Shown here in pieces: positions 1,303-64,000 of a stretch of 64,000 nt of DNA. The DNA lies in assembly GCA_934699595.1 (NCBI GenBank), contig CAKUWT010000003.1, forward strand, positions 10,130-74,129, read 5' to 3'. Made by a program: the position numbers and the translations under genes. Under the pieces are notes generated by a model. It made no database searches. It was not told where the DNA came from and worked only from the letters and a program-made list of their open reading frames with translations. Source of the stretch: an uncultured Patescibacteria group bacterium (GTDB lineage Bacteria > Patescibacteriota > Minisyncoccia > Phycocordibacterales > UBA918). The number at the start of each line of letters is the position of its first letter. Within the stretch, counting starts at the first letter, position 1.

Positions 1303-1393
1303 CAAATTCCTTTCGATGACACAACTCAAGCCCCTTTCCAAAATCTGGAAGGGGCTTTTCTTTTATACTTTTACCGTAGTTTAGTAAATAAGC

Positions 1394-1777
1394 TTATGGT
1401 TTTGGTGGCGTGAACTTGTCGAAGCGATCAGTGTTAAACACACTATCGCAGCCAGAGGCACCCGGGTTATCAGCGCAATCTAGGGTATCCCCTAGGTTGA
1501 AAGTGCCGGCAGCAATTTTCAAAATAGCGAAGGCTGAGAGCATGACCAACATGCCAATTATTCCCCACATAATATGTTTTTGTCCTTCTGCCCGAGCAGC
1601 TGGATTGTTCGCGTTTGTGACGTACATCACCGCTCCATATACAAACACCAGTAAAGCCAGTGCGATCATTAAAGTAATGATCGGAAAAAGGATAATGTCG
1701 TTGACTTTTTCCACAAAACCTCGGGCTACATCCACTCCTGGAGATTGAGCGTGAGCGATAGTGATTAAATAAGGCAT
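1394..1777 (-). CDS. T4SS pilin-like small membrane protein (TrbC/VirB2-like family common in CPR)
   Basis: 127 aa with two hydrophobic helices and the motif ALALLVFVYG that is shared with the neighbouring paralogs. Confidence 0.55.
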   Translation of the reverse strand: MPYLITIAHAQSPGVDVARGFVEKVNDIILFPIITLMIALALLVFVYGAVMYVTNANNPAARAEGQKHIMWGIIGMLVMLSAFAILKIAAGTFNLGDTLDCADNPGASGCDSVFNTDRFDKFTPPKP

Positions 1778-1804
1778 AATTATCTATGAAACCAAAGAAT
1801 GATT

Positions 1805-2203
1805 CTAACCACCCCAGGTCGGTGCAGTAGGTAGAGTGGGAGTGCCAGACACACCTAAGCCGGTTACAATCAAGTTAACCACTCCGAAGAAAATCAGAAC
1901 TATCACAAACCCAGCGATAGAGTAGGTGATCAAATATGTTCCCTTCTTTCGCTCCTCTTCATTGGCCGCTCCTTTAACATAAAAAATAAATACTCCCCAG
2001 ACAAATACCAAAAAGGCGAGGGCTAGGATAGCCGGAATCAGGATGGAGTTGATAAACTCTGCAACATTTTTTAGAATGACAGCGAATGAATTACTCTTTG
2101 CCCACCCAGCAGAACCAATACCAGTCCCTGCCCCTTGAGCGAAAGTCACGAATGGGAGTACAGACAAAAAGGTCGCTAATAGGGCTGAATAAATTTTCTC
2201 CAT
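1805..2203 (-). CDS. T4SS pilin-like protein with signal peptide (paralog 2)
   Basis: Motif NSILIPAILALAFLVFVWG is identical to paralog 3. ATG at 2203; the track start at 2221 is a TTG. Confidence 0.6.
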   Translation of the reverse strand: MEKIYSALLATFLSVLPFVTFAQGAGTGIGSAGWAKSNSFAVILKNVAEFINSILIPAILALAFLVFVWGVFIFYVKGAANEEERKKGTYLITYSIAGFVIVLIFFGVVNLIVTGLGVSGTPTLPTAPTWGG

Positions 2204-2318
2204 AAATATATATTTAGGCAAGTTACTTAAAATATTTGTAAACTATCTTACATTATTCCTAATTCTAACATGGTCCTTGTGTAGATATGGCTAAATAAAC
2301 CTTCCCGTGTAGATAAAA

Positions 2319-2349
2319 ACCGCTTACTTTATAGTAAGCGGTTTTTACC
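2319..2349. terminator. hairpin aaccgcttact..agtaagcggtt flanked by A/T runs (bidirectional terminator)
   Basis: Perfect 11-bp stem followed by ttttt, read directly from the sequence downstream of the pilin gene 2403..2786(-). Confidence 0.5.
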
Positions 2350-2402
2350 GACATGTTTGAGTTGAGACGAAAACTACTTTAAAAAGCTGCGCTTACTAAG
2401 GC

Positions 2403-2786
2403 TTAAACCTCAACACCTACTGGTCGGGTAATGGTATCACCCTCAAGGCCGCTGCCAAAACCTTCAATCAGTAAGTTAACTAGACCAAAGAAAATCAGAA
2501 TAACGACGAATCCAGCCAAGGCATAGATCATCAAACTTCGACCCTTGCCCTTAGCTTCATCATCAGCACCACCTTTAATAAAATAAAGGAAGATACCCCA
2601 AACAAATACCAAAAAGGCGAGGGCTAGAATAGCCGGAATCAGGATGGAGTTGATGAACATCACCAGATTCTGGATAATTTGAGCAAACCGATTGCCAGTA
2701 CCATCGCTAATCAATCCTTGAGCACTAGCTGCAAATGGCAGTACCGCGAGGACGCCTAGAGTCAATAATGAAGAGATTTTTTTCAT
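2403..2786 (-). CDS. T4SS pilin-like protein with signal peptide (paralog 3)
   Basis: Signal peptide plus NSILIPAILALAFLVFVWGIFLYFIKGG; a tandem paralog of 1805..2203. Confidence 0.65.
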   Translation of the reverse strand: MKKISSLLTLGVLAVLPFAASAQGLISDGTGNRFAQIIQNLVMFINSILIPAILALAFLVFVWGIFLYFIKGGADDEAKGKGRSLMIYALAGFVVILIFFGLVNLLIEGFGSGLEGDTITRPVGVEV

Positions 2787-2912
2787 GAACTTATGCGTAA
2801 TAAATAATAATGATTAATCTACACGGAGTACGATGATCTCTCGTAGACTCAATAAACAATACCTCAAAAATACCTAGATGTAAACTTACCGTATCACTAC
2901 CCTGTGGGAAAA

Positions 2913-3170
2913 CTAACCGAACAGTCCCGCTCTGAGAATTGCCAAAATCCCCCACAAGCTAGATATAATTGCCAACACAATAATACCGACAGTTAAAGTT
3001 ACCCTTCCCTCAGCATGTTTCTTTTCATCACCAGCATTTATTATCCAGGAATCCACCAATTTCCAAACAATTACCAAAAAAGCCACTGCTATTAAAACTG
3101 GAATCATTAAATTAATTAAACCAATAATATGATTAACTAAATCGGCTAAGGTATTTGGAGGACTACTCAT
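2913..3170 (-). CDS. small pilin-like membrane protein (paralog 4, no signal peptide)
   Basis: 85 aa, two TM helices, VLIAVAFLVIVWKL resembles the core of the neighbours. Confidence 0.45.
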   Translation of the reverse strand: MSSPPNTLADLVNHIIGLINLMIPVLIAVAFLVIVWKLVDSWIINAGDEKKHAEGRVTLTVGIIVLAIISSLWGILAILRAGLFG

Positions 3171-3180
3171 AATAATTGAA

Positions 3181-3633
3181 TTAACCAGCGAAGGAATCCA
3201 CTAAATTCTTAATAATTTCCGCGATCGTAACCGCTCCCAAGATGAGCACACCACCGATGACCGCGTAAGTGAGAGCCGCGGTAGCTTTTTGGGTTTCGGC
3301 AGCATTGCCACGGGCGGTGACATACTTAAAACCAGCTAGAATAATGAAGAAGACCACCACGGGAATGGCGAGAATTATCACCACATTGAGAATCCCGACC
3401 ATAAACTCATTAAAAGAACCAAATCTTGACATAGGGTTTTCTAGCTTTACTGAACCTGCGGCTGTTGGACTACCGCCTGAGCCACCACTCTTACCTCCAG
3501 TCGGAGAGAGTGCCCCGTCAGATCCAAAATGTTGAGCTAAAGAAAAACTAGGCAAGCTCAAGAGTACCAATGGAAAAAGTATTAACAAAGAACAAACGAT
3601 ACTATTAGCTACTATCCGAAGTTGATTTCTCAT
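3181..3633 (-). CDS. pilin-like secreted/membrane protein with Gly/Ser-rich linker (paralog 5)
   Basis: Signal peptide, GGKSGGSGGS linker, C-terminal hydrophobic hairpin IPVVVFFIILAGFKYV as in T4SS pilins. Confidence 0.5.
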   Translation of the reverse strand: MRNQLRIVANSIVCSLLILFPLVLLSLPSFSLAQHFGSDGALSPTGGKSGGSGGSPTAAGSVKLENPMSRFGSFNEFMVGILNVVIILAIPVVVFFIILAGFKYVTARGNAAETQKATAALTYAVIGGVLILGAVTIAEIIKNLVDSFAG

Positions 3634-3669: not shown

Positions 3670-4983
3670 CTAATAGTTGTCACGTAGACGTAACAACGCA
3701 TCACGCACCGATTCATCAATCCGACGACGACCTGCCGTAGTGTCCTCGATCATCTGCTTGAAGATACCTTGGATAGTCTGGGGATTAGGTGACCACCAAC
3801 CGCGTGCAATCGGAGCCGACTTGAAAGCTAAGCGTCCGTACTGATCATTGCTCCCTGCTTCCAAGCTCACTCGCCGCACCGGTGCCATACCCGCAGTGAT
3901 CGCTATTTCAGCAGCGTTATCACTAGCCGATAAGGCCTGCATAACTTGATAGGCCCCATTGGGATTACGAGCACTTCTAACCACCGCAAGGCCATAGAAG
4001 GAGCCGTACGTACGACGAACGGTTGCGGTCGCGCCCTGCGGCACTTCGGCAATATCAAAATTGAGATTCGGATTTTGTCTAGCCAAACCCTTGGCTTCGC
4101 TCGCCATACCAAAATATAAGAACAATTTTTCCGCTAAGAACTGTTGCTTGTCATTGGGCAAGGAACGATTCCAGGTGTAAAACTCGTTGCTAGGATTAGA
4201 GAAATTTACATAAAAACTAAGCGCGTTTTGTAATGGTGACTCCCCACCACCGTTAACCATTTGGTTAAGTTCAATATTGTAAAAAAATCCATCTCCTGGT
4301 CTTTCAGTAATAAGTTGACTACCTCCCTGAATTAACAACATCGAAAGTACCGGAAAAACATTAGTCACATTATTATACTCACCAAAGGCTAAGGTACTAA
4401 GAGTAATATTGTGACTAAAATCTCTTTCTACCGTCTCCGTCAAAAAGCTGTTTACTAGCTCTTCCCAGGTCGCTGGTGGTGTCAAAATACCTCTAGTACT
4501 CAACATATCTCGATTCCAATACATCATCAGAGGGTCGACCGCTACCGGTAGAGCGTAGATACCGTCTTTTAGGACAAAAACTTCGGCGCCATCGATGAAG
4601 TTGTTCCGGAAATCCCGTATCGGGTAATTGGTGTACGATAATGGCAACAGACGACCGCGATTATGCACTAATTCTTCATGAGGAATTAGCACTAGGTCTG
4701 GAGCACGATTATCAGCCAAGGCTTCTAGGAATTCACTATTGAACTGACTCGGGGATTTATAGGAGTAGGACACTGCGCGCCAAGCTGGATCATTATCACC
4801 AAGTGGCCGCAGCACCGCCTCTACTGCCTCAGCCGGCATCGTACCCCAGATTTCCACAGCCCCTCCCAAACTCACGACCCCGGGTTTGGTTTTAGGTTTG
4901 TAGTTAGAAATAATAAATAACGACAACAATCCCAAAACAGCAAAGATAGTGAAGATAACTAACTCAAAAGGTCTTAATTTCAT
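3670..4983 (-). CDS. extracellular solute-binding protein (ABC transporter substrate-binding, family 1-like), N-terminal membrane anchor
   Basis: 437 aa, N-terminal TM, overall MalE-like periplasmic-binding pattern. ATG at 4981-4983 overlaps the stop of the next gene (ATGA). Confidence 0.45.
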   Translation of the reverse strand: MKLRPFELVIFTIFAVLGLLSLFIISNYKPKTKPGVVSLGGAVEIWGTMPAEAVEAVLRPLGDNDPAWRAVSYSYKSPSQFNSEFLEALADNRAPDLVLIPHEELVHNRGRLLPLSYTNYPIRDFRNNFIDGAEVFVLKDGIYALPVAVDPLMMYWNRDMLSTRGILTPPATWEELVNSFLTETVERDFSHNITLSTLAFGEYNNVTNVFPVLSMLLIQGGSQLITERPGDGFFYNIELNQMVNGGGESPLQNALSFYVNFSNPSNEFYTWNRSLPNDKQQFLAEKLFLYFGMASEAKGLARQNPNLNFDIAEVPQGATATVRRTYGSFYGLAVVRSARNPNGAYQVMQALSASDNAAEIAITAGMAPVRRVSLEAGSNDQYGRLAFKSAPIARGWWSPNPQTIQGIFKQMIEDTTAGRRRIDESVRDALLRLRDNY

Positions 4984-5519
4984 AGTGCTCGAAAAGTTAA
5001 GCCGTAGTGCTGACTTCCGACCGGGAAGTCACGCACATAAGTAAACTGATTACTTTCAGCGCAATCAGTGGCTGCAGCTTTAGAGACAACTGTCTCAGGA
5101 GACGGGCAGACACCCGCGCAGGCTGCCTGCCAATCAATGATATGCAAGCTGCCGCCACGCTTGAGTACTCGCCGTGCCTCCGCCATCAATATTTCCTTGC
5201 GCTCAGCTTGAAAAAGAATATTAACCATGATGACCGCGTCTAAAGATCCGTCAGGGAGTTTAGCCCCGCCCGCCGCTTCCAAATCAGCCCAAATAATATC
5301 GACATTCTCTAAGTTCTTACTACGCACAAAACTGCCCAATTTTTCAATCAACACTTTCTGTATTTCTAAAGCGTAAACACGCCCCGTTTCACCAACGGCC
5401 GCTGACAAACTTGGCAAGAAATAACCACTACCGGCGCCAAAATCAGCCACTAGATCACCTTCTTGTAGATTAAAGTGACTAACGGCTGCCTCTGGCGAAA
5501 TAAACGAGTTACCTAGCAT
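4980..5519 (-). CDS. class I SAM-dependent methyltransferase
   Basis: DFGAGSGYF glycine-rich SAM-binding motif; ATG at 5517-5519. Confidence 0.75.
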   Translation of the reverse strand: MLGNSFISPEAAVSHFNLQEGDLVADFGAGSGYFLPSLSAAVGETGRVYALEIQKVLIEKLGSFVRSKNLENVDIIWADLEAAGGAKLPDGSLDAVIMVNILFQAERKEILMAEARRVLKRGGSLHIIDWQAACAGVCPSPETVVSKAAATDCAESNQFTYVRDFPVGSQHYGLTFRAL

Positions 5520-18209: not shown

Positions 18210-18282
18210 GGCCCTATCGTCTAGTGGTTAGGACGCAAGGTTTTCATCCTTGAAGCCGGAGTTCGATTCTCCGTAGGGTCAC
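18210..18282 (+). tRNA. tRNA-Glu (anticodon UUC)
   Basis: Cloverleaf read by eye: acceptor ggcccta/tagggtc, anticodon stem caagg/ccttg with loop ttTTCat, T-arm cggagTTCGATTctccg. Confidence 0.85.
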
Positions 18283-18408
18283 AGAATCGAGTGCTAGTTC
18301 GAGCACTCGACAAGGGTAACGAAAGGAGTAGAACCTTGTTTCTGCTCCTTTCGTGTATATAGATATAAAAATGTACAACGAAGTATAAAGTTGTAAAATT
18401 GATAAAGT

Positions 18409-21111
18409 ATGGCTAGTCTCTTAGAAAAAATTGATGTAATCAATGAAAAAATAAACAAGAACATCGCTATCCTCTCAAATAATGAGCGTGGTCTTGCGTC
18501 TCAGGCAATCCTGGACGATCTCCGTGATCTAGTTGAACACACTGCTGTTTTAATTCACGCTGGTCAAGAAGCAGAAATTGGTTTTGATCTAATCAAAGAA
18601 AGTCTTGAACATATACGTGGATTCTCCAAATACAGTTTTCTATACAAGCTACATAGTAGATTGAATTTAGCTATTTCACATTATGAGCCTAATGAAAGTG
18701 ATGCTGAAATGCTAATGCTAGGCTACATGCATAATTTATTTCTTATAAAGAAATTTTATCTTAAAAATTATAATCATCTCATTTTACAAGATTTACGAAA
18801 TTATCCGTTAAATCTAGATCCTGGCTTATCAGATTATTACAAAGCTATAATTGATAAAATAAAAACTTCTAATTATGAAGAAGTAGACAAAGCTGATTTT
18901 TATATTGACCGAGTAAAACCACTGATTATCGACAACGAACTGTATTATGAGGTAACTTTTCGACCCGCAACAAATAATTTTGCAAAGTTTAATAAAACGG
19001 TGGCATATACAAAGCGTAAAATTACAACAAACTACGCACTTAAGCTGACTTTAGCAAAAACTCAAATAGACGTATTTGATACAAAATCACGTGTTCTCAT
19101 TATATTAGACTTTGAGATCTCAATTCGTCCGTGTGAAATACAACACCTGGGAATGATTTTTGATAGAGGTTTTACGTTCAATAGTAGGACGAAAGAATAT
19201 CAAAATCTGATGAGTGCTTTAAAGGTTAGTCAGTTAACATTGCTTGAGGTAGTGACTCTAAATGAGACCAGATTTGAAAAATTTAAAAAATATTTAAGCG
19301 ATGACGCGCGCTCAGTAAAAATATTAGAGGTTCTTGAAAAATGTAGACAAATAATCATAGAAGATTTAAATGGCTCTAATATTTTGAGGTATCTTCTGGC
19401 TAATCTAAATAATGCTGTTCTGAAGAAACAGCTAAACACCGAGAAGTGCAATATACTTTCGGGTATGTTTTTAAAGAATGGCTGTCGAGTATTCGACGAC
19501 ATGCCTTTCTGTTCATCTCTAAATGGACATAATCCAACGAAGCTTTCTTTAATTGATTGTATCTCCCCAGAAAATAGAAAACATGAATTCTTGGCAAGAC
19601 ATATTAATCAAAACGCAAGAACAAAAAAGATTCTCTATACTCCTATTGAAGAGGTGCAGAAAGTTTATAATGTTGATCAAGAGATCGAGGCTTTTAATTC
19701 AAAAATTTGGGAAGGTCACAAGCCCGCTCGTGAATTGAGAACTTACTCCAAGTATATATACAATTATGGAGCCGAGAAAGATTGTCATGACATATTTACT
19801 AAAATCTTAAGTCTTACCGATTCGGGCATTGAAGATTACCAAACACTCATTGATCTGTGGCTTGACCAACAAAGTGACGATGTCATTGATTCGGATCAGA
19901 AGAGACAAGTTCTAAGAGAATTATTTGCAGAAACACACGTTGCGCTCATTTATGGATCGGCGGGTACTGGGAAAACCAAGATGATTGAATATATTGATAA
20001 TGTATTTCAAGCTGAAAATAAAATATTTCTCTCTAACACAAATGCCTCAGTAAACAATCTCAGGGCCCGAATTGGAGAAAGTGATAAGCATACTTTCTCT
20101 ACGGTTTCTTCATATCTACATAATATTGATGAATATGGTGACTCAGAAATACTTTTTATTGATGAATGCAGTACTGTAAGTAATGCAGATTTGTTACAAA
20201 TTCTCAAGCATAAAAAGTTTGAGAAAATTGTCTTAGTGGGAGATGTTTACCAAATAGAATCAATAGATTTTGGAAACTGGTTTTATCTTTGCAAAAACCT
20301 GCTCCCGAAACATTGCATTTTCGAATTAGATGATACACACAGGACTAAAAAAGAAGACTTGAAACTATATTGGTCTGCTGTTCGAAATTCGGATGATAAT
20401 GTACGCGAAATTGCTTCTAGGGGTCATTTCACCAAACCAGTTGATCAATTCATAAAAAACTATGAGGATAAAGAGGATCAGATTGTACTATGTTTAAACT
20501 ATGATGGTTTATATGGAATCAACAATCTAAATAGACTTTTGCAGGAAAAAAATCAAAATACTGCAGTGGACTGGGGTGTTCATAGTTACAAGGTTGGAGA
20601 CCCCATTATTTTTACCGAATCGTCGAGATTTTTTCCCGTTTTATATAACAACTTAAAGGGGCGCATAGCCAAAATTGACGCTAACGGCGATGAAATAACA
20701 TTTGAAATAGTAATTTCTTATTCACCAAATCCGTTTGATGCCCATCGTTGCGGAGTTGAGTTGTTGGAGAACCTGCCAGACGGTAAATCAAAAATTAAAT
20801 TCTCAGTAAATAAACTAGAAAATGTTGATGAGGATTTAGATGATTCTGATAGATTAGTCCCATTTCAGGTTTCGTATGCTACATCTATTCACAAAGCTCA
20901 AGGTCTTGAGTATAAATCTGTAAAACTTGTTTTTGTTGATGAAGTACAAGATATGGTTACTCATAGTATATTTTATACGGCTATAACCAGAGCCAAAGAG
21001 GAACTAGAAATTTATTGGTCTCCTGAAACTGCAGATAAAGTCTATGAGAAAATTAAAACTAATCTAAATAAGCAGGACTCTTATATTTTTAAGAACAAGT
21101 TTAGCTTATAA
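18409..21111 (+). CDS. 900-aa protein: ~500-aa N-terminal domain of unknown function fused to a C-terminal SF1 (RecD/Dda/Pif1-like) helicase
   Basis: Walker A LIYGSAGTGKTKM, Walker B FIDECSTV, LVGDVYQIESID, UvrD_C-like SYATSIHKAQGLEYKSVKLVFVDE..TAITRAKEELEIYW. The gene is markedly AT-rich. Confidence 0.7.
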   Translation: MASLLEKIDVINEKINKNIAILSNNERGLASQAILDDLRDLVEHTAVLIHAGQEAEIGFDLIKESLEHIRGFSKYSFLYKLHSRLNLAISHYEPNESDAEMLMLGYMHNLFLIKKFYLKNYNHLILQDLRNYPLNLDPGLSDYYKAIIDKIKTSNYEEVDKADFYIDRVKPLIIDNELYYEVTFRPATNNFAKFNKTVAYTKRKITTNYALKLTLAKTQIDVFDTKSRVLIILDFEISIRPCEIQHLGMIFDRGFTFNSRTKEYQNLMSALKVSQLTLLEVVTLNETRFEKFKKYLSDDARSVKILEVLEKCRQIIIEDLNGSNILRYLLANLNNAVLKKQLNTEKCNILSGMFLKNGCRVFDDMPFCSSLNGHNPTKLSLIDCISPENRKHEFLARHINQNARTKKILYTPIEEVQKVYNVDQEIEAFNSKIWEGHKPARELRTYSKYIYNYGAEKDCHDIFTKILSLTDSGIEDYQTLIDLWLDQQSDDVIDSDQKRQVLRELFAETHVALIYGSAGTGKTKMIEYIDNVFQAENKIFLSNTNASVNNLRARIGESDKHTFSTVSSYLHNIDEYGDSEILFIDECSTVSNADLLQILKHKKFEKIVLVGDVYQIESIDFGNWFYLCKNLLPKHCIFELDDTHRTKKEDLKLYWSAVRNSDDNVREIASRGHFTKPVDQFIKNYEDKEDQIVLCLNYDGLYGINNLNRLLQEKNQNTAVDWGVHSYKVGDPIIFTESSRFFPVLYNNLKGRIAKIDANGDEITFEIVISYSPNPFDAHRCGVELLENLPDGKSKIKFSVNKLENVDEDLDDSDRLVPFQVSYATSIHKAQGLEYKSVKLVFVDEVQDMVTHSIFYTAITRAKEELEIYWSPETADKVYEKIKTNLNKQDSYIFKNKFSL

Positions 21112-21133
21112 CTAAATTCAATTAGCTATTTTC

Positions 21134-22417
21134 TTATTTCTGAGCTGAAATAATCTTGTTTTTTAGAATTAAATTATTCTTAACACAATTCAGAACTGAT
21201 CTTTTCTCCAAAACTGTCCCGTCTCTCAAAACAAATTTGAGATAATTTCTCAGATCTACCTTCTGTATTTCTGCAGTGTTTTCTTTGCCCAGAAACATTG
21301 CTTGAAGTCTCTTGAATTTCTTGATCTCAAGATTTAACTTTTCGGTAAGTTGCATTTCATTAAGATCAAGTGTGCTTGCCATTTTCTGAAACTCTTTGAG
21401 GAGATCGTTTTCATTTATTGCTGGGTTTTTGCACTTTCTATCCTTTGATTTGGCGCAGCGATAATATACATGTCTGTTCACTCCTCCATTTAGCAACTTC
21501 TTAAACTTCTCATCAGCGGTAATTCCCGATCCGCAAACACCGCACTTCATCATTCGAGTAAAAGCAAATTCCTTGCCTTGTGACTTTATAACCTGTGACT
21601 TGATTGAGTTTCTCGTCTCATCGAATAATTCCTTAGTAATCAGTGGCGTATGTTTGCCCTCATACCAAATACCAGCACCTTGCGGAAACTCAAATTTTCC
21701 ATAATAAAACGTATTGTTAATGATCTTGAATACATTCCCGATACTTAAGTGATAACCACGCAAGGTACGGAAGTTTAAATCGTATTTTAGCCATGCGTGT
21801 ACCTTTGAAGCACTCCATTTATCATAGGCAATTTTCTCAAAGATTTGCCGTATAACATCTGCCCGTTCTGGATCAATTTCTACCTCGCATTTGGCTAGTC
21901 GCCCATCAACTTTTCTATAGCCTGTCGGTGGTTGGGCTGGCCACAATCCCATCTCGCACCTTGTTCTCATGCCACGCTTCACATTGATACTTTTGTTATC
22001 GTTCTCTAGCTTTGCTTGAGAACAGAGAATCATAAGGAGAAACTTATCGCTTGGTGAATTAGTGAAGTTCTGCCCGAACGTTTTAATGGTAATGAGCTTC
22101 TTTTGATCCATGCGGTCAACGAGCTTACCCAAATCTCCAGCATTTCGTGATAATCGATCAGGTGCCCACGTGATAATGGCGTTAAAAATACCATTATCAA
22201 TGTCTCGTACAATCTCTTCAAATACTGGTCTTTGACCTGATTCTTTAGCGGAGTGTGACTCTCTCCTAATTTCAACGATAGTAAGCTTTTCTCGCTCGGC
22301 TATTTGTGTCATTTCTTTGATCTGTGAATCAATCGAAAGAGCTTGTTTTTCGTCACCTTCGGTCGACTTACGAGCGTATAAACAATAACGATATTCGCTT
22401 GGTAATACTTCTGTCAT
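21134..22417 (-). CDS. large serine recombinase (resolvase domain + recombinase domain + zinc ribbon)
   Basis: N-terminal YARKSTEGDEKQALSIDSQ (catalytic Ser region), DRLSRN motif, C-terminal CGVCG..YYRC zinc ribbon; 427 aa. Confidence 0.85.
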   Translation of the reverse strand: MTEVLPSEYRYCLYARKSTEGDEKQALSIDSQIKEMTQIAEREKLTIVEIRRESHSAKESGQRPVFEEIVRDIDNGIFNAIITWAPDRLSRNAGDLGKLVDRMDQKKLITIKTFGQNFTNSPSDKFLLMILCSQAKLENDNKSINVKRGMRTRCEMGLWPAQPPTGYRKVDGRLAKCEVEIDPERADVIRQIFEKIAYDKWSASKVHAWLKYDLNFRTLRGYHLSIGNVFKIINNTFYYGKFEFPQGAGIWYEGKHTPLITKELFDETRNSIKSQVIKSQGKEFAFTRMMKCGVCGSGITADEKFKKLLNGGVNRHVYYRCAKSKDRKCKNPAINENDLLKEFQKMASTLDLNEMQLTEKLNLEIKKFKRLQAMFLGKENTAEIQKVDLRNYLKFVLRDGTVLEKRSVLNCVKNNLILKNKIISAQK

Positions 22418-22439
22418 GTATTAATTGATGACAGAACCA

Positions 22440-22467
22440 CAAACCCTGCATAGCTATGCAGGGTTTG
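22440..22467. other. 11-bp-stem hairpin caaaccctgca tagcta tgcagggtttg between the recombinase start and the HAD gene end
   Basis: Perfect inverted repeat seen in sequence. Could be a terminator or a recombination site. Confidence 0.3.
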
Positions 22468-22485
22468 AAAAACGTCACATACTCG

Positions 22486-23127
22486 CTATAAATCTAGCAG
22501 AGTCATGAGTTCCGAGATGTTTTTTATTCTGTAATCAGCGTCCGCGGTAACTTCTGGAAAATGCCTATTTTGAAAATGAACGGTTTTTAAACCTGCAGCT
22601 TGAGCCGCAGCCACCCCTCTTGGAGAGTCCTCTACAGCTATTATTTGTTCTGATGGAATGTTTGATTCTTGTATAGCTTTCAGGTAACAATCAGGAGATG
22701 GTTTGGGGTCGGTGTACTTTTCTCTAGTGATAATCCAATCAAGTGACTCAAGTAAACCGCTTTTTTCGTACACAGCTGTAAAAACATCCTGGCTTGCATT
22801 TGTAACAATTCCTATCTTGAATTTCTTACTCAACTCAACAAGTTCACTAACGGTACTTGGCGCAACAGATAGTCCAGTCTTTACTTTTTGAATAAATCTT
22901 CGGTTGCGCTCATTTTTAAAGCCCGCGATGTCTTCAATATGGTTTTGTTTCAAAAAACCAGCTGACCCAAGATTGCTAAGAAACGAGTATCTAATGTAAT
23001 CATCACGTGTGTGTTCAATGCCGTACTGCCGGATAAGCTCGGAGTTGATTTCAAAATAGATATTGTCAGTGTCTGCAACCACTCCATCGCTATCAAACAA
23101 AATACACTTAATATCCATTCTTTTCAT
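22486..23127 (-). CDS. HAD-family hydrolase (beta-phosphoglucomutase-like)
   Basis: ILFDSDGVVADT motif I, GIVTNAS motif, ATG at 23125-23127 (MKRMDIKC...). The track start is a GTG further upstream. Confidence 0.7.
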   Translation of the reverse strand: MKRMDIKCILFDSDGVVADTDNIYFEINSELIRQYGIEHTRDDYIRYSFLSNLGSAGFLKQNHIEDIAGFKNERNRRFIQKVKTGLSVAPSTVSELVELSKKFKIGIVTNASQDVFTAVYEKSGLLESLDWIITREKYTDPKPSPDCYLKAIQESNIPSEQIIAVEDSPRGVAAAQAAGLKTVHFQNRHFPEVTADADYRIKNISELMTLLDL

Positions 23128-23186
23128 GATACACAAAAGTCCTAGATTGACCAGAACATAATATAAGTTATTATTCAACACATATT

Positions 23187-23801
23187 ATGAAAAAAACTGT
23201 CGTACTAATAGAAGGTGGAACAACATTTGAGACTTACGATGGCTACATATCATTTTTGCACTCAATGCCCATTAGTGTTGAATATCTTGAAAAACAAACA
23301 TGGAGAGATTCTCTCCAGTCTGATCTTGGCGAGACTTTTAAAGTAGTGAGATTGCAGATGCCAAACAAGATCAATGCCAAATATGAAGAATGGAAAATTT
23401 ACTTTCACAGATATATAGAAATATTGGGAGACGATCTTATTTTGCTTGGACATTCTCTTGGCGCTACTTTTCTAGTGAAGTTTTTGGCTGAGGAAACCAT
23501 TAAAAACACCATCTCCCGAGTGATACTGGTGGCAGTTCCTTTCGGTGAGAAAAGGACGGGACCGAGTTTAGGTGATTTTACTTTTGAATGCTCAACAAAT
23601 TTTGAAGCAGTTAACTCTGATCTCAAGATCACACTGTTTGCAAGTGACAACGATAAAATGATCACTAAGGATGATGTAGAAAAGTACCAGAAAGTAATAA
23701 AAAATCTAGAAGTCAAAACACTACCTGACCGCGGTCATTTCAGTCAAGGCGAATTTCCTGAACTGATCTCATGTATCAAAAGAGAAGACGTTGAAATATA
23801 G
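23187..23801 (+). CDS. alpha/beta-hydrolase, serine hydrolase (RBBP9/YdeN-like)
   Basis: LLGHSLGA nucleophile elbow, C-terminal PDRGHFS; 204 aa. Confidence 0.6.
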   Translation: MKKTVVLIEGGTTFETYDGYISFLHSMPISVEYLEKQTWRDSLQSDLGETFKVVRLQMPNKINAKYEEWKIYFHRYIEILGDDLILLGHSLGATFLVKFLAEETIKNTISRVILVAVPFGEKRTGPSLGDFTFECSTNFEAVNSDLKITLFASDNDKMITKDDVEKYQKVIKNLEVKTLPDRGHFSQGEFPELISCIKREDVEI

Positions 23802-23889: not shown

Positions 23890-24924
<1,035 letters not shown>

Positions 24925-26846: not shown

Positions 26847-27890
26847 ATGCAACCAGACTATGCCCGTCAGTGGGCACTTGAGGCTGAGAGAATCTACGCA
26901 AGCAAAGTTGCGCAGTTCGCTCTTGAAACAGAGACGGCATTGAGGGAGACTGAGTTCACAAATACTTGGGACTCCCTCCTCGGTGTTGGTGTGTGGGCTG
27001 TACAGAATCACTTCCAGCTTTGCACAGCAATCAAAAACAAAAAAACCTTTGCTGTGTTAGTTGGTATGAGGCCTGGTGCCACGTTTCATCTTGGACATCT
27101 GACCATGATGAACGAGCTGCAATGGTATGTGCAAAAAGGCGGAGTGCCTTTGATTGTTTATGCTGGTTTCGAAGCTAGCAAAAAGCAAGAAGACTTGGAT
27201 CTTACGCACGAGTTCGAGGGCTTCAAGAAGCTGTATCGACGCTTTACAGGTGACGATCTGACTTCTGACACTATCGCTATCTCAGATCTGGAAGATCCTG
27301 CTCTCTTGAGACTGGAACGACAGATAGAGGAAGTTGTAACAGCCAGAAAGATACTCCAACTTTACGGCTGGGATGAGTCGACATCGGTTGCAAAGTTGCG
27401 TGTCCCTTGCAAGACAGCTGCAGCTTTTCTTCTGTCCTCCGTGCTGATGCCCGGAGTACCCAGTGTCATTTTATCGGACATCAATCAAGTGACTCACTTC
27501 GAAGTCGCAAAAATTGCAAGCCGATCTCTTGGGTTAAGACTTCCTACGGTTTCGTATCGCCACCTGCTGCAAAGTCTGGAAGGACCAGAAGGTAGAATGA
27601 GCGTTAAAAACCCAAAGTCTCTATTGTTGCTAGACGATACACCCGAGGTGGTCGGCAACAAGCTCAAAAGATGCTTCTCTGGTGGAAAGCTTACCGCCGA
27701 AGAACAGAGAGAAAGCGGTGGCAATCCTGATGTGTGTTCTTTCTTCAAAGTCGCAAACGTTACGCTTCCTAGAGAAGAATCGTTTGCAATACATAAATCT
27801 TGTAGAGACGGCTCTGTATTGTGTGGTGAGTGTAAGAAGCTGCACATTCCAGAAATTGCCGCAAGATTCCAAAACTTGGAGCCCGACTGA
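26847..27890 (+). CDS. divergent TrpRS-like class I aaRS paralog
   Basis: MRPGATFHLGHL (HIGH-like), EGRMSVKNPKSLLLLDDTPEVVGNKLKR aligns to the TrpRS KMSKS..LLD.PE..KKI region, but KMSKS is altered to RMSVK. RBS AAGGAGG. Confidence 0.6.
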   Translation: MQPDYARQWALEAERIYASKVAQFALETETALRETEFTNTWDSLLGVGVWAVQNHFQLCTAIKNKKTFAVLVGMRPGATFHLGHLTMMNELQWYVQKGGVPLIVYAGFEASKKQEDLDLTHEFEGFKKLYRRFTGDDLTSDTIAISDLEDPALLRLERQIEEVVTARKILQLYGWDESTSVAKLRVPCKTAAAFLLSSVLMPGVPSVILSDINQVTHFEVAKIASRSLGLRLPTVSYRHLLQSLEGPEGRMSVKNPKSLLLLDDTPEVVGNKLKRCFSGGKLTAEEQRESGGNPDVCSFFKVANVTLPREESFAIHKSCRDGSVLCGECKKLHIPEIAARFQNLEPD

Positions 27891-28873: not shown

Positions 28874-31800
28874 TCACCTTCCCCTCAACAATCCCAAGAA
28901 GGCCTGGAGCACAGTAATCAACTCTTGCACCAAGGTCTTATTCTCTTCAGTGACGGTAATCTGAGTGGTGGGAGTAGCTGGTGCCGTTACCGTCTTCTTA
29001 AAGAGATCGGGGAACTTGGCTTCAAGACGAGCTACTTCAGCGGCGTTGCCATTGCTGCGGAGGATATTAACCCGGGAGAGGACAGACATCGTACTAATCT
29101 TTTTCTTGGGGGCGGGTTCGGAGTTATCGGGGACAGCAGAGACTTCTGTCTCAGTATCTGGGTTATCTGGAGTCAGCGGGTTCACAGTGACGGTAACTGT
29201 TTGACTGGCGCCGCCTCCAAGACCAGCACATGTAAGGGTGTAGTTGGTGGTAGTAGCCGGAGTGACCGATTGGGTGCCACTGAGACTCTTGGCACCAGAC
29301 CAGCCGCCAGAAGCGGTACAACTGGTGGCGTCAGCAGTGCTCCAGGATAAGAGAGTACTTTCACCAAAAGACACCTGAGCAGAAGTGGCTGAAAGAGTTA
29401 TTACCGGAGTGTTAGCTGGATTTACCGTCACTGACACCGATTGAATAGTAGTACCACCTGGTCCAGTACAGGTAAGACTGTACATCTCGTTTGTACTAGG
29501 GCTAACAGACTGCGATCCATGCAAACTCTTGGCACCAGACCAGCCGCCAGAAGCGGTACAACTGGTGGCGTCAGCAGTGCTCCAGGATAAGGTGGCGACA
29601 CTACCGTTCGTGATAGTACCTGGGGTGGCGGTAAAGATAATGGCTGGCTCAGGATCGACCGGCACCTCATTCACCGTAACAGTCGCATTAGCGGTCGCAG
29701 TCTTAACCCCATCAGTACAAGTGATGGTGTAATTAGTAGTGGCAGTAGGTGAGACTACTTGGGTGCCACTCTTAGTGGTGTGGCTAGTCCAAGGGGCAGA
29801 ACAACTAGTGACGACGTTGTTAGTACTCCAGGTGAGGGTGGTAGTGTCGCCGTTAGTGATAGTGCTAGGAGTGGCGATAAGGGAGACGGTGGGGTCTGGG
29901 TCTGGAGTGCCGGGGTCTGGGTCTGAGACAGTGAGGGTAACACTTTTGGTATCGGTACCGTCAGTGCCGGTACAAGCCAGGGTGTATGTATAAGTGCCAG
30001 CGGTACTGGGGGTGATGATCTCGGTGCCTGTCGTGGCTTTGGTACCAGACCAGTTACCAGAAGCGGTACAACTGGTGGTGTTGGTGGAGTTCCAGGAGAG
30101 TGTGGTGCTGTCTCCGGTTTCGATGGTGGAGGGGGTGAGGGAGAAAGATACTAGTGGAGCAGCGGGTGCTGGATCAGTAACGGTAATAGTAATCTCTTTA
30201 AAGGTATCGCCTCCAGGACCATAACATTCTAAAGTATAAGCAGTAGTCTCAGTCGGAGTAACAGTCTCTGGACCACCAGACAAGTTACGTGCACCAGACC
30301 AACCGCCAGTAGCCAAACAACTGGTGGTATTGACACTACTCCAAGACAAAGTGGTACTTTGACCCTTTAGAATCGTGCCACTAGCAGCAGTAAAGGTAAT
30401 AGACGGGAAATCAAGTGGATCCAGAGGAGGATTCTCTTCATCCTCAGTTTCAGAGACATCATAGACCTGGAAACCGCCAATGTACCCATCAAATCCAACC
30501 TCACTACCAATCGGATCACCAAAAGCAGGGTCCCAGGACTCCGTTGGTTTTGTCCTTCCGGAAGCAGGCGCAGTAGCTAACAAAACGCCGTCTAAGCTAA
30601 GAGTTAGCTCCCCAGCCACCGAACTATAGGTCACCTTTATTGTGTGCCAGTTATTATCAAGGATATTATTACCTGGAGCCGACACGGAATAAGTGACACC
30701 TTCTTGATTAGTGAAAGAGTGAGAAAGGTTTGAGCCAATTCTAAAATAGGTACTGCTATGCATCCGGAAAGGATTACCTGCTGAGGCGCTGCCGTTGGCA
30801 GCCTTAACATCCATAACCATGGTGTAATTATCTAAATCATAGATTTGGGACACCGCCCCCCGATTAAGCTCCACAGTTGTTGAAGTTGCAGTTATTCTAA
30901 AAGCCCACTTACCATCAATAAACTCTGTTGGCGTTACTGGCAAATTACTAGCGTACGGAGACAGATCGGTAATACCACTCTCAGAAACCCTAATATCTAG
31001 ACGAGAAGATTCTGGCACATAAGCACGACCATACGCAGTGCTGGTAGCCCCTAAACTATCGGTTACTGTTAGGGTTACTTCATAAGTACCAGCCACAGGA
31101 TATTGTCGAGTTACATCTCTACCCAAGGCAGTAGTGCCATCCCCAAAATCCCATTCGTAGTTAGTGCCAGTATCAGGCACCAAACCAGCACTATTAGCTG
31201 TATACTGCCCTGTAAAATGATAAGTATCAGCAGCGCTACTATTTCGATCCACTCGCACAATAGCGGTTAGTTCATCAGGATGGTCGTTAAAGTGTGTTAA
31301 ATTAGCGCCGTACCCCCCGAGAGCAGCCTCTCCTCCCGGCAAGGCCTGTAGAGCCGGGATATCAGAGACAGGCGCGCCAGTCATAGCATTAATAAATAAA
31401 TCATGATAATAACCAGCTGAGAGATATTTTGAATTCTGTACTAGAAGATTGTGGTCTACTACCCAATTATCAGCATCGCCAGGTATGCTAGTAATTGACC
31501 GAGCAATATTATTCTCCACTAAAACATTCATAGACCTGGTAGCCACATAAATAGCTGGTCGGGAAATTTCTCCAGAGAGTGGCTTGTCAACTCCGACATT
31601 ACTTAGTAGAGTGTTGTCCCTAATTACTAATCCGTCTACCTCACCCATGGTAATACCGTGAGAATGACCATTAAAAATGAGGTTATTAATAACAGTAAAG
31701 TCTTTATAAAACATCTCATGCCCACCACCATAACTATCCACCACCTCGTTGCGCATAAAAATAGACTGAGTATGACCACCTGTACCTGAGTACAGAATAT

Positions 31801-32650
31801 TATCTTTAATCGTGACATGTTCGGAAGGGGCGGTAGTACCATTAGTCCAGAACTGAATCATATCTGGATGAGAACCATCAGTCTCATGTCGATGCTGCCA
31901 ACTATGAAAATAATTCCCTTCAATTAAGGTGTCTGTAACCCTAACAAAATTAAAACCGTCTGAACGAATATCGTGAACTTCGTTATTGCGAACAGTCAAG
32001 TCAGTAACGTTACTGTAAACACCAGCACGGTACCAAGTTCGAAATTCATTATTTTCCAAGATTACATGGTCAGTATTACTTATCGATAAACCAATTGCTG
32101 CTCCACGTCCAAATCCCGCAGGAGAAACATCACCGCTGGCATTATCACCTTCAAAAAGAGAATTACGAAAAGTAATATTTTCAGACCTAATTGGGGCCCC
32201 ACCTAAATGTCCCGAATCAACTGAGAATGGCCTATCCTTAGTAAAATTTGGATCACCAGAAAAGGTATATTTAAAAATTAATCCATCAAAGGTCATGTTA
32301 GTTACTCCAGCCAACCCCACCTTGGTAAAACGGGCAGGATTATTCATATCGGCTGAAGTAACTGTTACTTCTCCAGGAAAACGTGAGTAACTCTCGCGAG
32401 CATTGTAAAGCCCTAAAGTGTAATCTCCCGGCTCTAAGGCAATGACATCACCCGGATTAGCAACCGCCAGAGCAGCCATTAATCCTGCATTACTATTAAC
32501 GGTCGTTGTCGCTCCTAAAACTTCACTGCCTAAAAAAGTCTTATAAAATAAACCACCTGCAGACAGGATAAAACCTAACATTAGTATTATCCCAACAATT
32601 TGGTAAATTGATTTTTGTGGGTTTTGTCGCAAAACAGTGACAGTGGACAT
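28874..32650 (-). CDS. large secreted/surface protein: N-terminal anchor, right-handed beta-helix (pectin-lyase fold), PKD domain, lectin/LamG-like region, >=6 tandem Ig-like repeats
   Basis: PbH1-like repeats (NNEVHDIRSDGFNF, NNLIFNGHSHGITM), PKD signature NYEWDFGDGTT..YEVTLTVTD, ~80-aa repeats ..TLSWS..TSC.ASGGWSG..TYTL.C.G.GG. ATG at 32648-32650; the track start at 32677 is a TTG. Confidence 0.8.
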   Translation of the reverse strand: MSTVTVLRQNPQKSIYQIVGIILMLGFILSAGGLFYKTFLGSEVLGATTTVNSNAGLMAALAVANPGDVIALEPGDYTLGLYNARESYSRFPGEVTVTSADMNNPARFTKVGLAGVTNMTFDGLIFKYTFSGDPNFTKDRPFSVDSGHLGGAPIRSENITFRNSLFEGDNASGDVSPAGFGRGAAIGLSISNTDHVILENNEFRTWYRAGVYSNVTDLTVRNNEVHDIRSDGFNFVRVTDTLIEGNYFHSWQHRHETDGSHPDMIQFWTNGTTAPSEHVTIKDNILYSGTGGHTQSIFMRNEVVDSYGGGHEMFYKDFTVINNLIFNGHSHGITMGEVDGLVIRDNTLLSNVGVDKPLSGEISRPAIYVATRSMNVLVENNIARSITSIPGDADNWVVDHNLLVQNSKYLSAGYYHDLFINAMTGAPVSDIPALQALPGGEAALGGYGANLTHFNDHPDELTAIVRVDRNSSAADTYHFTGQYTANSAGLVPDTGTNYEWDFGDGTTALGRDVTRQYPVAGTYEVTLTVTDSLGATSTAYGRAYVPESSRLDIRVSESGITDLSPYASNLPVTPTEFIDGKWAFRITATSTTVELNRGAVSQIYDLDNYTMVMDVKAANGSASAGNPFRMHSSTYFRIGSNLSHSFTNQEGVTYSVSAPGNNILDNNWHTIKVTYSSVAGELTLSLDGVLLATAPASGRTKPTESWDPAFGDPIGSEVGFDGYIGGFQVYDVSETEDEENPPLDPLDFPSITFTAASGTILKGQSTTLSWSSVNTTSCLATGGWSGARNLSGGPETVTPTETTAYTLECYGPGGDTFKEITITVTDPAPAAPLVSFSLTPSTIETGDSTTLSWNSTNTTSCTASGNWSGTKATTGTEIITPSTAGTYTYTLACTGTDGTDTKSVTLTVSDPDPGTPDPDPTVSLIATPSTITNGDTTTLTWSTNNVVTSCSAPWTSHTTKSGTQVVSPTATTNYTITCTDGVKTATANATVTVNEVPVDPEPAIIFTATPGTITNGSVATLSWSTADATSCTASGGWSGAKSLHGSQSVSPSTNEMYSLTCTGPGGTTIQSVSVTVNPANTPVITLSATSAQVSFGESTLLSWSTADATSCTASGGWSGAKSLSGTQSVTPATTTNYTLTCAGLGGGASQTVTVTVNPLTPDNPDTETEVSAVPDNSEPAPKKKISTMSVLSRVNILRSNGNAAEVARLEAKFPDLFKKTVTAPATPTTQITVTEENKTLVQELITVLQAFLGLLRGR
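29284..29350. repeat. 67-bp perfect direct repeat inside the surface-protein gene (second copy 29525..29591), encoding Ig-like repeat units
   Basis: actcttggcaccagaccagccgccagaagcggtacaactggtggcgtcagcagtgctccaggataag occurs twice exactly, 241 bp apart; more diverged copies lie near 30045 and 30290. Confidence 0.85.
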
Positions 32651-32824
32651 GAAAATGAGGGAAATAGATTTTAGCAATAAGTCCTAGACCCAGTAACATT
32701 TTGGTGTCTATTACCTACAATGTTAACAATCCTGTTGATAAAAACTGGAGACACGGTGGATAACTCTACTTGACGAGATAGTTCAACAACACTTGGCTAC
32801 CTTAGCGAGCTTCATTAAAAAATA

Positions 32825-62399: not shown

Positions 62400-63326
62400 T
62401 TAAATCTTCAAATACCGAGCGATGGCTAGGACACTAGAGATAAATCCTAGGAAGATACCGACGCCAATGAGTGTGAGAAAGATATGGCCAAAATCTGCTA
62501 CAAAATAAGTGAAGAGATTGAACTCAAAGAACTTCTCGGTGCGAGGACCAAGCCAGTACACAATTGGGTATAAAATTGTCAGTGCCAGGACTCCAGAAAT
62601 CAATCCGTAGATAACTCCCTGAATAATGAACGGCCCGCGAATAAAGGCATTGCTAGCACCAACTAAACGCATAACAGAAATCTCTTCTCGCGCTGTGTAA
62701 ATTGCCAGACGGATAGTGTTGAAAGTGATCATAGCAGCAGCTACCAGTAATACGATCATGGTGATCAGGCCCGCTCGCTCGACGGCGTCCACGATATCAG
62801 TCAGCTTATCAATAGATTCCTTATTCTTGCTATAGTTAACATCGTCAATCAATGGCTCTTTAAGAGATTCGCTATCCTGTTTATCGGTCAAAAATTTAGC
62901 AATACTGTCGTAACGAGAAGTTTCTTTAGCTTGAATCGCTAAAGTGGCTCCCAAGGGATTTTCACCCAACTCATCCAAAGCCTGCAAAGCGATAGTATCG
63001 TTCTTATTACGCTCTCGGTACTGCTTAAGAGCATCCTCTCTTGAGGTGTAAGTCACCTTAGCCACTTCGGGGAGCGATTCTAGCTCAGTCTGCAAGCTGT
63101 TTATTTGCTCTACTGAGGCTGAGGGAACAAAGTAAACATTAATATCTACCTTAGCTTGCAGCTGATTTAGTGATGTAGTAAGCAATTGTTCTAACATCAT
63201 GGTTGAACCAATCACGAACAAAGCGACTGTAATCACAAACACTGACGCCAAGGAGACATAGGCGTTTCGCCAAAACCCCACCAAGCCCGCTCTAATTACT
63301 CTCCGAAAACCTGTTAACATAACCAA
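62400..63326 (-). CDS. ftsX: cell-division ABC transporter permease FtsX
   Basis: Four-TM FtsX topology with a large extracellular loop. An ATG at 63318-63320 is two codons inside the TTG-initiated track ORF. Confidence 0.8.
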   Translation of the reverse strand: MVMLTGFRRVIRAGLVGFWRNAYVSLASVFVITVALFVIGSTMMLEQLLTTSLNQLQAKVDINVYFVPSASVEQINSLQTELESLPEVAKVTYTSREDALKQYRERNKNDTIALQALDELGENPLGATLAIQAKETSRYDSIAKFLTDKQDSESLKEPLIDDVNYSKNKESIDKLTDIVDAVERAGLITMIVLLVAAAMITFNTIRLAIYTAREEISVMRLVGASNAFIRGPFIIQGVIYGLISGVLALTILYPIVYWLGPRTEKFFEFNLFTYFVADFGHIFLTLIGVGIFLGFISSVLAIARYLKI

Positions 63327-63340
63327 ACTAAATAATTGTC

Positions 63341-64000
63341 CTAAATAACGTACTTACCACTATTATCATCACGTACTATCTTACCTTCATCCATAGTAAT
63401 CACGCGCCGCCCCAACTCATCGATTACTCCCTTATTATGAGTAGTCATCACCACAGTCGTACCAAGATCGTTAATTTTTTTCAAAATTTGCACGACTTCG
63501 TAAGTAGCAATCGGGTCGAGATTTCCGGTAGGTTCGTCAGCAATAATAATATCTGGCTGGTTCACGATCGCGCGCGCGATCGCCACCCGCTGCTTCTCAC
63601 CGCCAGACAGTTCGTGTGGAAAATTCCAGGCTTTCTCTTCAAGATTTACCAAAGCGAGAGCTTCCGGGACGTTCTCAGCAATTTCCTCATCAGTCCGACC
63701 ATTAGCCTCCATAGCAAAGGCGATATTTTCGTAAGCAGTCTTATTAGAGAGTAATTTAAAATCCTGAAAAACAGTACCTATTTTACGACGGAAGTACGGC
63801 AGTCGTGAACGAGGGATTTTATGAATATCGGTCGACTCAAAGAAGACTTGTCCAGAGGTAGGCTTATCCTCAGCAATAATCATTTTTAGAAGGGTGCTCT
63901 TACCCGCTCCAGAATGTCCCACGATGGAAACAAATTCTTTAGGTTCAATTTGAAAAGAGATGTTTTTAATAGCGGCGCTATTACCTCCATCATATAACCG
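63341..64000 (-). CDS. ftsE: cell-division ATP-binding protein FtsE, partial: N-terminus lies beyond the window edge
   Basis: Walker [10 protein letters not shown], signature [14 protein letters not shown], Walker [13 protein letters not shown]. The frame stays open upstream of the track start through nt 64000. Confidence 0.85.

Follow-up and report, generated by a model that had tools for sequence, protein, structure and literature searches.

A tandem array of type IV secretion system pilin-like genes with a conserved class order in Kaiserbacteria-like Paceibacteria

Five tandem genes encode small hydrophobic hairpin proteins

We analysed a 64 kb stretch of DNA from an uncultured Patescibacteria group bacterium (contig CAKUWT010000003.1; the whole stretch is referred to here as the window), in which a minus-strand array at positions 1394-3633 holds five tandem genes for small proteins that resemble pilins of type IV secretion systems (T4SSs). 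The initial annotation had placed five minus-strand genes here, and all of these open reading frames (ORFs) are indeed present, in agreement with public gene calls on the source contig, a 141 kb ENA metagenome scaffold. Each is a complete ORF with a start, none resembles a silent cassette, and two independent assemblies are identical across the array locus.

Read along the minus strand, the array begins with p5 (3181..3633), whose product of 150 amino acids (aa) has a signal peptide (LAQ|H), then a linker rich in Gly and Ser and a conserved hairpin of two helices; p5 represents the TrbC/VirB2-like class. The start of p4 (2913..3170), coding for an 85 aa hairpin protein without a signal peptide, lies 10 nucleotides (nt) past the p5 stop. 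It is followed by p3 (2403..2786; 127 aa, signal peptide SAQ|G), our candidate for the major subunit, which has its own promoter-like element and terminator. The next gene, p2 (1805..2203), encodes 132 aa from ATG, or 138 aa from an alternative TTG start upstream at 2221; it carries the signal peptide FAQ|G and is a diverged, lineage-specific duplicate of the p3 class. The last gene, p1 (1394..1777), specifies a 127 aa hairpin with a C-terminal extension that holds a conserved Cys pair.

Signal peptides were read directly from the sequence. As first annotated, three of the proteins carry one: p2, p3 and p5 each combine a basic N-terminus and a hydrophobic stretch with an A-x-A|Q site. The N-terminus of p1 consists only of a short MPYLITIAHAQS lead, typical of the p1 class, and is no classic signal peptide. 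All five proteins are small and are built as a hairpin from two hydrophobic helices. The AlphaFold2 model of p3 places a signal helix before hairpin helices H31-71 and H76-114 (predicted local distance difference test score 75.6), and the model of the mature form gives the hairpin as H7-48/H53-94. Structural searches with the hairpin models were non-specific and the fold is uninformative; a profile search of PDB sequences found no pilin.

Pairwise amino acid identity among the five proteins is 22-38%, with 58% for p2 and p3. A core sequence had been described as common to all five. It is exact in p2 and p3, which share IPAILALAFLVFVWG, but the other three hold diverged versions. The stretch over which p2 and p3 are identical exists as well, but it spans 21 residues (FINSILIPAILALAFLVFVWG) and not about 19.

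Four gene classes occur in a fixed order across related species

One genome per species was scanned, giving 58 loci from about 50 related species. Because the relatives were found with the p2/p3-class alignment, the sample is biased towards genomes that retain the p3-class core motif. Each relative's ORF was assigned to the class of its best-matching window paralogue; an ORF scored about 100 bits with its own class and about 40 bits with the others. Nearly all 58 loci hold a tandem array of 4-7 pilin-like ORFs, and the order of the classes is constant: p5 (1-2 copies) comes first and p4 second, followed by the p3/p2 type (1-3 copies) and p1. The commonest arrangements are p5-p4-p3-p1 (18 loci), p5-p4-p3-p3-p1 (14) and p5-p5-p4-p3-p3-p1 (8), and common variation in copy number is seen in the p3 class alone. 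Where p3-class genes are duplicated, 37 of the 41 within-genome pairs predate species splits, each copy being closer to a copy in another genome. The p2 gene of the window is an exception; it has a lineage-specific look, and its best cross-genome identity is only 0.49. The four classes are ancient and orthologous and, in our reading, non-interchangeable.

Each class has its own signature. Members of the p5 class have a signal peptide, a variable linker and a strongly conserved hairpin, and those of the p4 class, at about 85 aa, are without a signal peptide. The p3 class carries a signal peptide with the A-x-A|Q site, then LIPFIIGIGFLVFVWG. Members of the p1 class lack a classic signal peptide, and near the C-terminus they carry a conserved Cys pair with the consensus L.CA..P...GC. 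This pair, which in the window lies in the p1 tail at 1394-1480, was found in the p1 class only, and its conservation suggests an extracytoplasmic disulfide loop at the C-terminus. The class alignments hold invariant Pro, Gly, Trp and Tyr positions; variation is greatest at the termini, and conservation lies in the helices.

The array proteins form one superfamily, probably related to conjugative pilins

The assignment of the genes as T4SS-pilin-like stood up to a hidden Markov model search. Whole-protein scores for PF18895 (T4SS_pilin; gathering score 26.6 bits) were 26.9 bits for p1, 29.6 for p2, 31.4 for p3 and 27.5 for p5, so that four of the five proteins pass the gathering score; p4, at 17.0 bits, falls under it and is linked through profile-profile comparison. 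In hhalign comparisons of the class alignments, p4-p3 reached 99.3% (E=1.8e-20), p3-p1 98.7% and p4-p1 98.1%, and the p5 class gave 96% with p3, 93% with p1 and 63% with p4. These values place the five proteins in one superfamily, in which p4 is by profile-profile comparison a clear paralogue.

The family signal extends through the relatives, in which a class member was counted as a match at E<=1e-3. PF18895 matched 37 of 37 members of the p5 class, 27 of 37 of p4, 37 of 38 of p3 and 37 of 37 of p1, with best E-values among the orthologues of the four classes ranging from 1.7e-11 to 2.5e-8. The TrbC/VirB2 family PF04956 was matched by p5-class members only (28 of 37; best E=1e-7), and NF045849, the Mbov_0395 family of pilin-like conjugal transfer proteins from Mycoplasma integrative and conjugative elements (ICEs), by 36 of 37 p1-class members (best E=1.1e-9). 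The NF045849 model is an 80-residue hairpin profile with a curated cut-off of 40 bits. Because the window proteins score below this cut-off (p1 35.0 bits, E=8e-9; p2 32.4; p3 27.1; p5 21.7), p1, p2, p3 and p5 are relatives and not members of that family.

For comparison with established pilins, we collected six genuine VirB2/TrbC genes from a plasmid collection, using as the probe an Agrobacterium tumefaciens VirB2 sequence that proved 99% identical to an annotated virB2. All six come from Alphaproteobacteria, which makes for a narrow alignment. The A-x-A|Q site occurs in every one of them (AAAQS, ATAQV, AHAQG, ALAQT, ALAQS). Of the four classes, only p3 gave a modest hhalign match to these sequences, with 68% probability over the A-x-A|Q site and helix 1, a weak match against a narrow reference.

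A short conversion tract links p2 and p3

The identical stretch of p2 and p3 belongs to a gene-conversion tract of 63 nt on the minus strand (repeat family D2), at 2595..2657 in p3 and 1994-2056 in p2. Nucleotide identity is 93.7% within the tract compared with 55.9% outside it. Where both proteins have the same, degenerate residue, the codon is also the same at 16 of 20 positions within the tract but at 21 of 48 beyond it (Fisher p=0.006). At the protein level, p2 and p3 share derived Ala/Leu at positions that are occupied by Phe, Gly or Ile in 29-35 of 36 relatives. The tract is the product of a short conversion event, which homogenises the conserved, buried first helix and diversifies no surface.

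Intergenic motifs resemble promoter elements

A motif had been reported to recur in the intergenic DNA. It does so, but a few bases away from the positions first given, at 2279-2286 (+), 2307-2314 (+) and 2817-2824 (-). Across the window, GTGTAGAT occurs in 5 copies where 1.56 are expected, and 1 of 100 shuffles reaches 5. On the minus strand, a -10-like element, GTGTAGATT, lies at 2816..2824, 38 nt upstream of the p3 start, and takes in one of the motif copies first annotated. Upstream of p2, two ATCTACAC copies (2307-2314 and 2279-2286, spanning 2279..2314) precede an extended -10-like element, TGTTAGAAT, at 2262..2270. The first ATCTACAC copy would be the upstream element of a composite p2 promoter; it stands 36 nt ahead of TGTTAGAAT, which is 39 nt to the -10 hexamer, as in the composite of the relatives. 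After p3 comes a terminator-like hairpin with a T-run (2308..2353, minus strand; inverted repeat I1, with 21-nt arms that are 90% complementary and a 4-nt loop). A second, GC-rich terminator-like hairpin of 11 pairs (1328..1357, unstranded), in the gap between p1 and the convergent gene at 166-1302, would mark the end of the array transcript.

In the relatives, gaps are about 8 nt between p5 and p4 and about 90 nt for p4-p3, p3-p3 and p3-p1. GTGTATA(AT) occurs 42-57 nt ahead of p3-class and p1-class starts at 1.75/kb compared with 0.055/kb elsewhere, and TATACAC 2-17 nt past the preceding stop at 1.67/kb compared with 0.018/kb elsewhere. With rigid spacing, T[AG]T[AG]CAC-N37-TGTA[TG]A[ACT]T is present in the p4-to-p3 spacers of 16 relatives and in 0 of 200 shuffles. 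The composite T[AG]T[AG]CAC-N37-TGTATAAT (loci L003-L055) is confined to the position before the first p3-class gene; it has the look of a regulated promoter that is preceded by a site for protein binding.

Since the motif copies in the window fit the promoter geometry seen in the relatives, we interpret GTGTAGAT as promoter architecture. The GTGTAGAT and ATCTACAC copies are accordingly read as predicted promoter elements for p3 and p2, and not as recombination sites. An invertible element formed by GTGTAGAT upstream and ATCTACAC downstream of p3 (the 13-nt inverted repeat I8) was considered and rejected. About 3 exact 10-mer inverted repeats are expected by chance per 2.4 kb, and the exact 8-mer is not conserved in the relatives (14 one-mismatch hits, 14.7 expected). 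An RNA hairpin between the half-elements was likewise rejected: the left element varies (TATACAC, TGTACAC, TATGCAC) and GTGTATA shows no compensating changes.

The array lies in a conserved housekeeping neighbourhood

The window is ordinary chromosome, with genes for GyrA, FtsA, FtsZ, LepA, MurJ, CTP synthase and aminoacyl-tRNA synthetases and with six tRNAs. Its nearest named relatives are Candidatus Kaiserbacteria, Nomurabacteria and Paceibacteria metagenome-assembled genomes; the host is a Kaiserbacteria-like member of the Paceibacteria and the locus is chromosomal. Just upstream of p5, on the same strand, a gene at 3670..4983 encodes a membrane-anchored protein of 437 aa that resembles solute-binding proteins (SBPs; SBP_bac_1, 30.7 bits). 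Its start is overlapped by 4 nt by a gene for an S-adenosylmethionine-dependent methyltransferase (4980..5519, minus strand; Methyltransf_11/25).

The order of neighbours is conserved as GyrA, methyltransferase, SBP-like, array, a variable stretch of about 2 kb, rhodanese and, further on, RbfA and IF2. In 51 of 53 relatives, no more than 3 kb separates the SBP-like gene from the array, and its end is usually within about 20 nt of the first pilin gene; the methyltransferase, a conserved upstream neighbour, is syntenic in 47 of 53. The SBP-like gene is probably co-transcribed with the array, and the likely transcription units are (methyltransferase-SBP-)p5-p4, then p3, then p2-p1. No ATP-binding cassette (ABC) permease or ATPase stands next to the SBP-like gene, and the ABC components of the window are limited to FtsE/FtsX at 62400-63922. 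Of the 748 homologues of the SBP-like protein, the best 120 share at least 48% identity with it, and all of these come from the same lineage. As the whole neighbourhood is syntenic (Pth, S1, GyrA ... IF2), the adjacency of SBP-like and pilin genes is not yet separable from inherited gene order.

The stretch from the array to rhodanese is a variable spot within this otherwise rigid neighbourhood. Two convergent genes without Pfam hits lie downstream of the array (166-1302 of the window, plus strand, and L001 11482-12732). They were considered as conserved partners and rejected: the 341-aa product, a multi-pass membrane protein, has no homologue at this place in the relatives, and the 416-aa product occurs in only 10 loci. 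In CP060229, the one relative that is complete, the distance from the array to the start of the 995 kb record is about 38 kb; that start may or may not be the replication origin.

Pilin-like genes outside the array and other features of the window

One relative carries solo p1-type and p3-type genes (L020; JABAZV010000014.1, 2759-3094 and 10001-10375) in a PheT/GyrB context. The same genome also has a standard array (L029), and single pilin-like genes are therefore scattered beyond it. The L020 locus was rejected as a possible T4SS locus, its surroundings being of the PheT/GyrB housekeeping kind. Elsewhere, proteins of 345-407 aa join an N-terminal T4SS_pilin-like hairpin (24-25 bits) to an uncharacterised C-terminal part and are encoded in Mur-ligase neighbourhoods. 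These fusion genes occur at L056 (9944-11155), L057 (194-1306), L058, L059, L067 (10001-11206) and L068 (10001-11134), each followed by 2.3-3.3 kb without called genes. At L067, a VirD4-type coupling protein (TrwB_AAD_bind) is encoded 8 kb from the fusion gene.

Further along the window, a low-GC island at 18210-23200 (GC 0.354, against about 0.45 around it) starts at a tRNA-Glu gene (18210-18282) and holds genes for a 900-aa helicase of the AAA_30/UvrD_C_2 type (18409-21111) and, at 21134-22417, for a large serine recombinase; it probably represents a mobile element that has integrated. The gene at 23902-24924 (plus strand) is a complete one for a tRNA synthetase of class I (Trp/Tyr-type). 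A second ORF at 26847-27890 (plus strand) has only a 48-residue match to the same family, and between the two lie ORFs of 363 and 268 aa without Pfam hits. A gene at 28874-32677 (minus strand) encodes a large, surface- or adhesin-like protein of 1267 aa with PKD, right-handed beta-helix and Laminin_G_3 domains. Proteins of this type are thought to matter for host attachment.

Discussion

With moderate confidence, we favour the view that the array encodes a fixed heteromeric set of the VirB2 superfamily, with p3 as bulk subunit, that is assembled by a T4SS whose genes lie at another place in the genome. The hairpins would be inserted in the cytoplasmic membrane so that the two termini face outwards and the basic loop lies on the inner side; an outside C-terminus of p1 fits the conserved Cys pair in its tail. 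A monoderm-type, MPF-FATA-like T4SS, encoded elsewhere, would extract the proteins from this membrane pool and build from them a filament or conduit that is pilus-like and heteromeric. The bulk subunit would come from the p3/p2 class, and p5, p4 and p1 would act as low-copy initiator, base or tip subunits; these major and minor roles are inferred. The diversity of the copies would then represent a division of labour fixed long ago. The fixed four-class set, its one amplified class with its own promoter and the constant SBP-like partner argue for a heteromeric structure and against antigenic variation. Of the two proposals made earlier for the tandem diversified copies, functional variation is favoured by the data in the sense of different fixed roles.

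Several observations weigh against assembly by a T4SS. We know of no pilus ever seen in these organisms. The PF04956 gathering score of 27.9 bits is not reached by the window proteins (p5 21.4 bits, E=3e-4; p1 16.2; p3 10.2). Our search for T4SS genes covered the 64 kb and a further 8.6 kb of the 141 kb scaffold; it found no VirB4, VirD4, VirB6, VirB8 or VirB1 among window ORFs of at least 120 aa, and none of the same families among the called genes in the 8.6 kb past the left edge of the window. In the relatives, 0 of 93 unexplained ORFs of at least 350 aa within 10 kb of the arrays have a Walker A motif. As no T4SS gene lies nearby, the link to a T4SS rests on homology and the literature and not on context. 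The initial annotation had tied its proposal to profile hits and to T4SS ATPase genes in the genome: the hits exist, but neither the window nor the 8.6 kb beyond it holds such an ATPase.

The same observations bear on an account that we hold to be unlikely, in which the SBP-like protein and the four hairpin classes form one heteromeric, VirB4-free membrane complex of the envelope that is independent of any T4SS. It would be, for example, an uptake channel or receptor scaffold, and 'pilin' would then be a family label. The SBP-like gene lies near the first pilin gene in nearly all relatives (51 of 53), often with overlapping or near-overlapping stop and start, and no ABC permease or ATPase is found nearby. 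No T4SS ATPase was found near the array in the relatives, the second pilin locus (L020) is likewise in a housekeeping context, and the fold is uninformative. However, all sampled genomes share the whole neighbourhood, and the adjacency may be inherited synteny. In addition, the p5 class matches TrbC/VirB2 and the p1 class a conjugative-element protein, and a published survey gives family members adjoining virB4 in 1,135 of 1,948 VirB4-containing assemblies with VirB2-like pilins (PMC12102498). We consider distinctly improbable a nutrient-scavenging organelle derived from conjugative pilins, with the hairpins and the SBP-like protein forming one filament or channel and substrate being captured by the SBP. 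For this, the structural genes would have been separated from the T4SS ATPase locus, or the machine would work without that locus, and T[AG]T[AG]CAC-N37-TGTATAAT would be a dedicated regulatory switch.

The tandem copies had also been taken to suggest antigenic variation. In this reading, which may be extended to host range, they would be alternative versions of one surface subunit, swapped or recombined so as to alter the exposed surface. The p3 class does vary between 1 and 3 copies from genome to genome, the p2 of the window is lineage-specific and fast-diverged, a 63-nt conversion tract is common to p2 and p3, and the termini are more variable than the helices. Yet the four orthologous classes keep their order across about 50 species, and 37 of the 41 duplicate pairs are older than speciation. 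All copies are complete genes with no silent cassettes among them, the conversion tract homogenises a buried, conserved helix, the motif copies match promoter geometry and not recombination sites, and no polymorphism separates the two independent assemblies. Antigenic variation of the whole array is largely refuted and, in our estimate, highly improbable. It is barely credible that the proteins are generic small membrane peptides of no common function that match a loose Pfam family through their hydrophobic composition. The window scores pass the gathering threshold by only 0.3-4.8 bits, many weak hits to unrelated membrane families appear alongside, and the structural searches are non-specific. 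What is conserved among the orthologues already contradicts this reading: conservation within each class is strong and includes invariant Pro, Gly, Trp and Tyr positions, order and spacing are fixed in about 50 genomes, and orthologue E-values reach 1.7e-11 to 2.5e-8 for PF18895, 1e-7 for TrbC and 1.1e-9 for NF045849.

Comparison with known systems

The expansion of pilins in Patescibacteria, which the initial annotation cited as background, agrees with the literature (PMC12102498, PMC12857230). According to Quinonero-Coronel et al. 2025 (PMC12102498), VirB4 occurs in 2,417 of 3,035 Patescibacteria assemblies, is nested in the monoderm MPF-FATA class and is often near dnaA in Paceibacteria. 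VirB2-like pilins are present in 1,948 VirB4-containing assemblies and lie near virB4 in 1,135 of those. The same study reports 441 arrays of 2-11 pilin genes in 383 assemblies (mean identity 25%, maximum 54%), most abundant in Microgenomatia and Saccharimonadia, and suggests that the copies serve antigenic variation or host adaptation. Six VirB2-like pilins are essential in Southlakia epibionticum ML1, the one species in which the system was tested (Wang et al. 2023, cited in a 2025 FEMS review, which speculates about a pilus-like conduit; PMC12857230), and the role of the T4SS in Saccharibacteria has been called completely unknown (PMC11665869).

The array described here shares with the published ones its tandem, divergent genes of the PF18895/PF04956 type, its chromosomal location and the lack of a relaxase. 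It differs in not being part of a T4SS locus, with no VirB4- or VirD4-type ATPase within 10 kb in about 50 relatives. Whereas the published arrays are most abundant in Microgenomatia and Saccharimonadia, it belongs to a lineage of Paceibacteria in which the array appears universal. The survey text consulted contains no description of the fixed four-class order or of the internal promoter (PMC12102498).

VirB2 of A. tumefaciens and TrbC of RP4 are likewise small proteins with a long signal peptide running up to A-x-A|Q; a short basic loop connects their two hydrophobic helices, and the C-terminus is rich in Gly. Those systems, however, have one pilin plus VirB5, whereas five genes of four classes occur here and do not lie beside virB3/virB4; their hosts are Gram-negative, and the organism here is monoderm. 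The hairpin profile of the Mbov_0395 family (NF045849) is matched nearly end to end by p1, p2, p3 and p5. That family is part of a conjugation system of the monoderm (MPF-FATA) class, and VirB4 of Patescibacteria is related to this class (PMC12102498). The Mbov_0395 protein is encoded on a mobile element beside VirB4/VirD4 homologues, unlike the chromosomal, unlinked array.

Several diverged virB2 copies in tandem are also known from the T4SSs of Anaplasma, Bartonella and Rickettsia, host-associated pathogens in which they are discussed as antigenic variation; a change of the exposed surface has been proposed for the paralogues of Bartonella and Anaplasma. Those sets are lineage-specific expansions of one pilin, in contrast to the ancient classes found here, which are orthologous across species. 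Type IV pili offer an analogy only. There, an abundant subunit with its own strong promoter is accompanied by fixed-order, low-copy paralogues that prime or cap the filament. Type IV pilins differ in their N-terminal helix with a beta-sheet head, their PilD-type leader and their use of PilB/PilC, and no homology is claimed.

The locus was correctly recognised; it belongs to a kind that is already published and adds no new kind of system. The comparative result sharpens the question of what T4SS pilin arrays do and provides concrete candidates for major and minor subunits. Because one class consistently matches a Mycoplasma ICE protein, our findings suggest that VirB2-like hairpins may be native to monoderm-type T4SSs, which would make borrowing from Gram-negative systems unnecessary.

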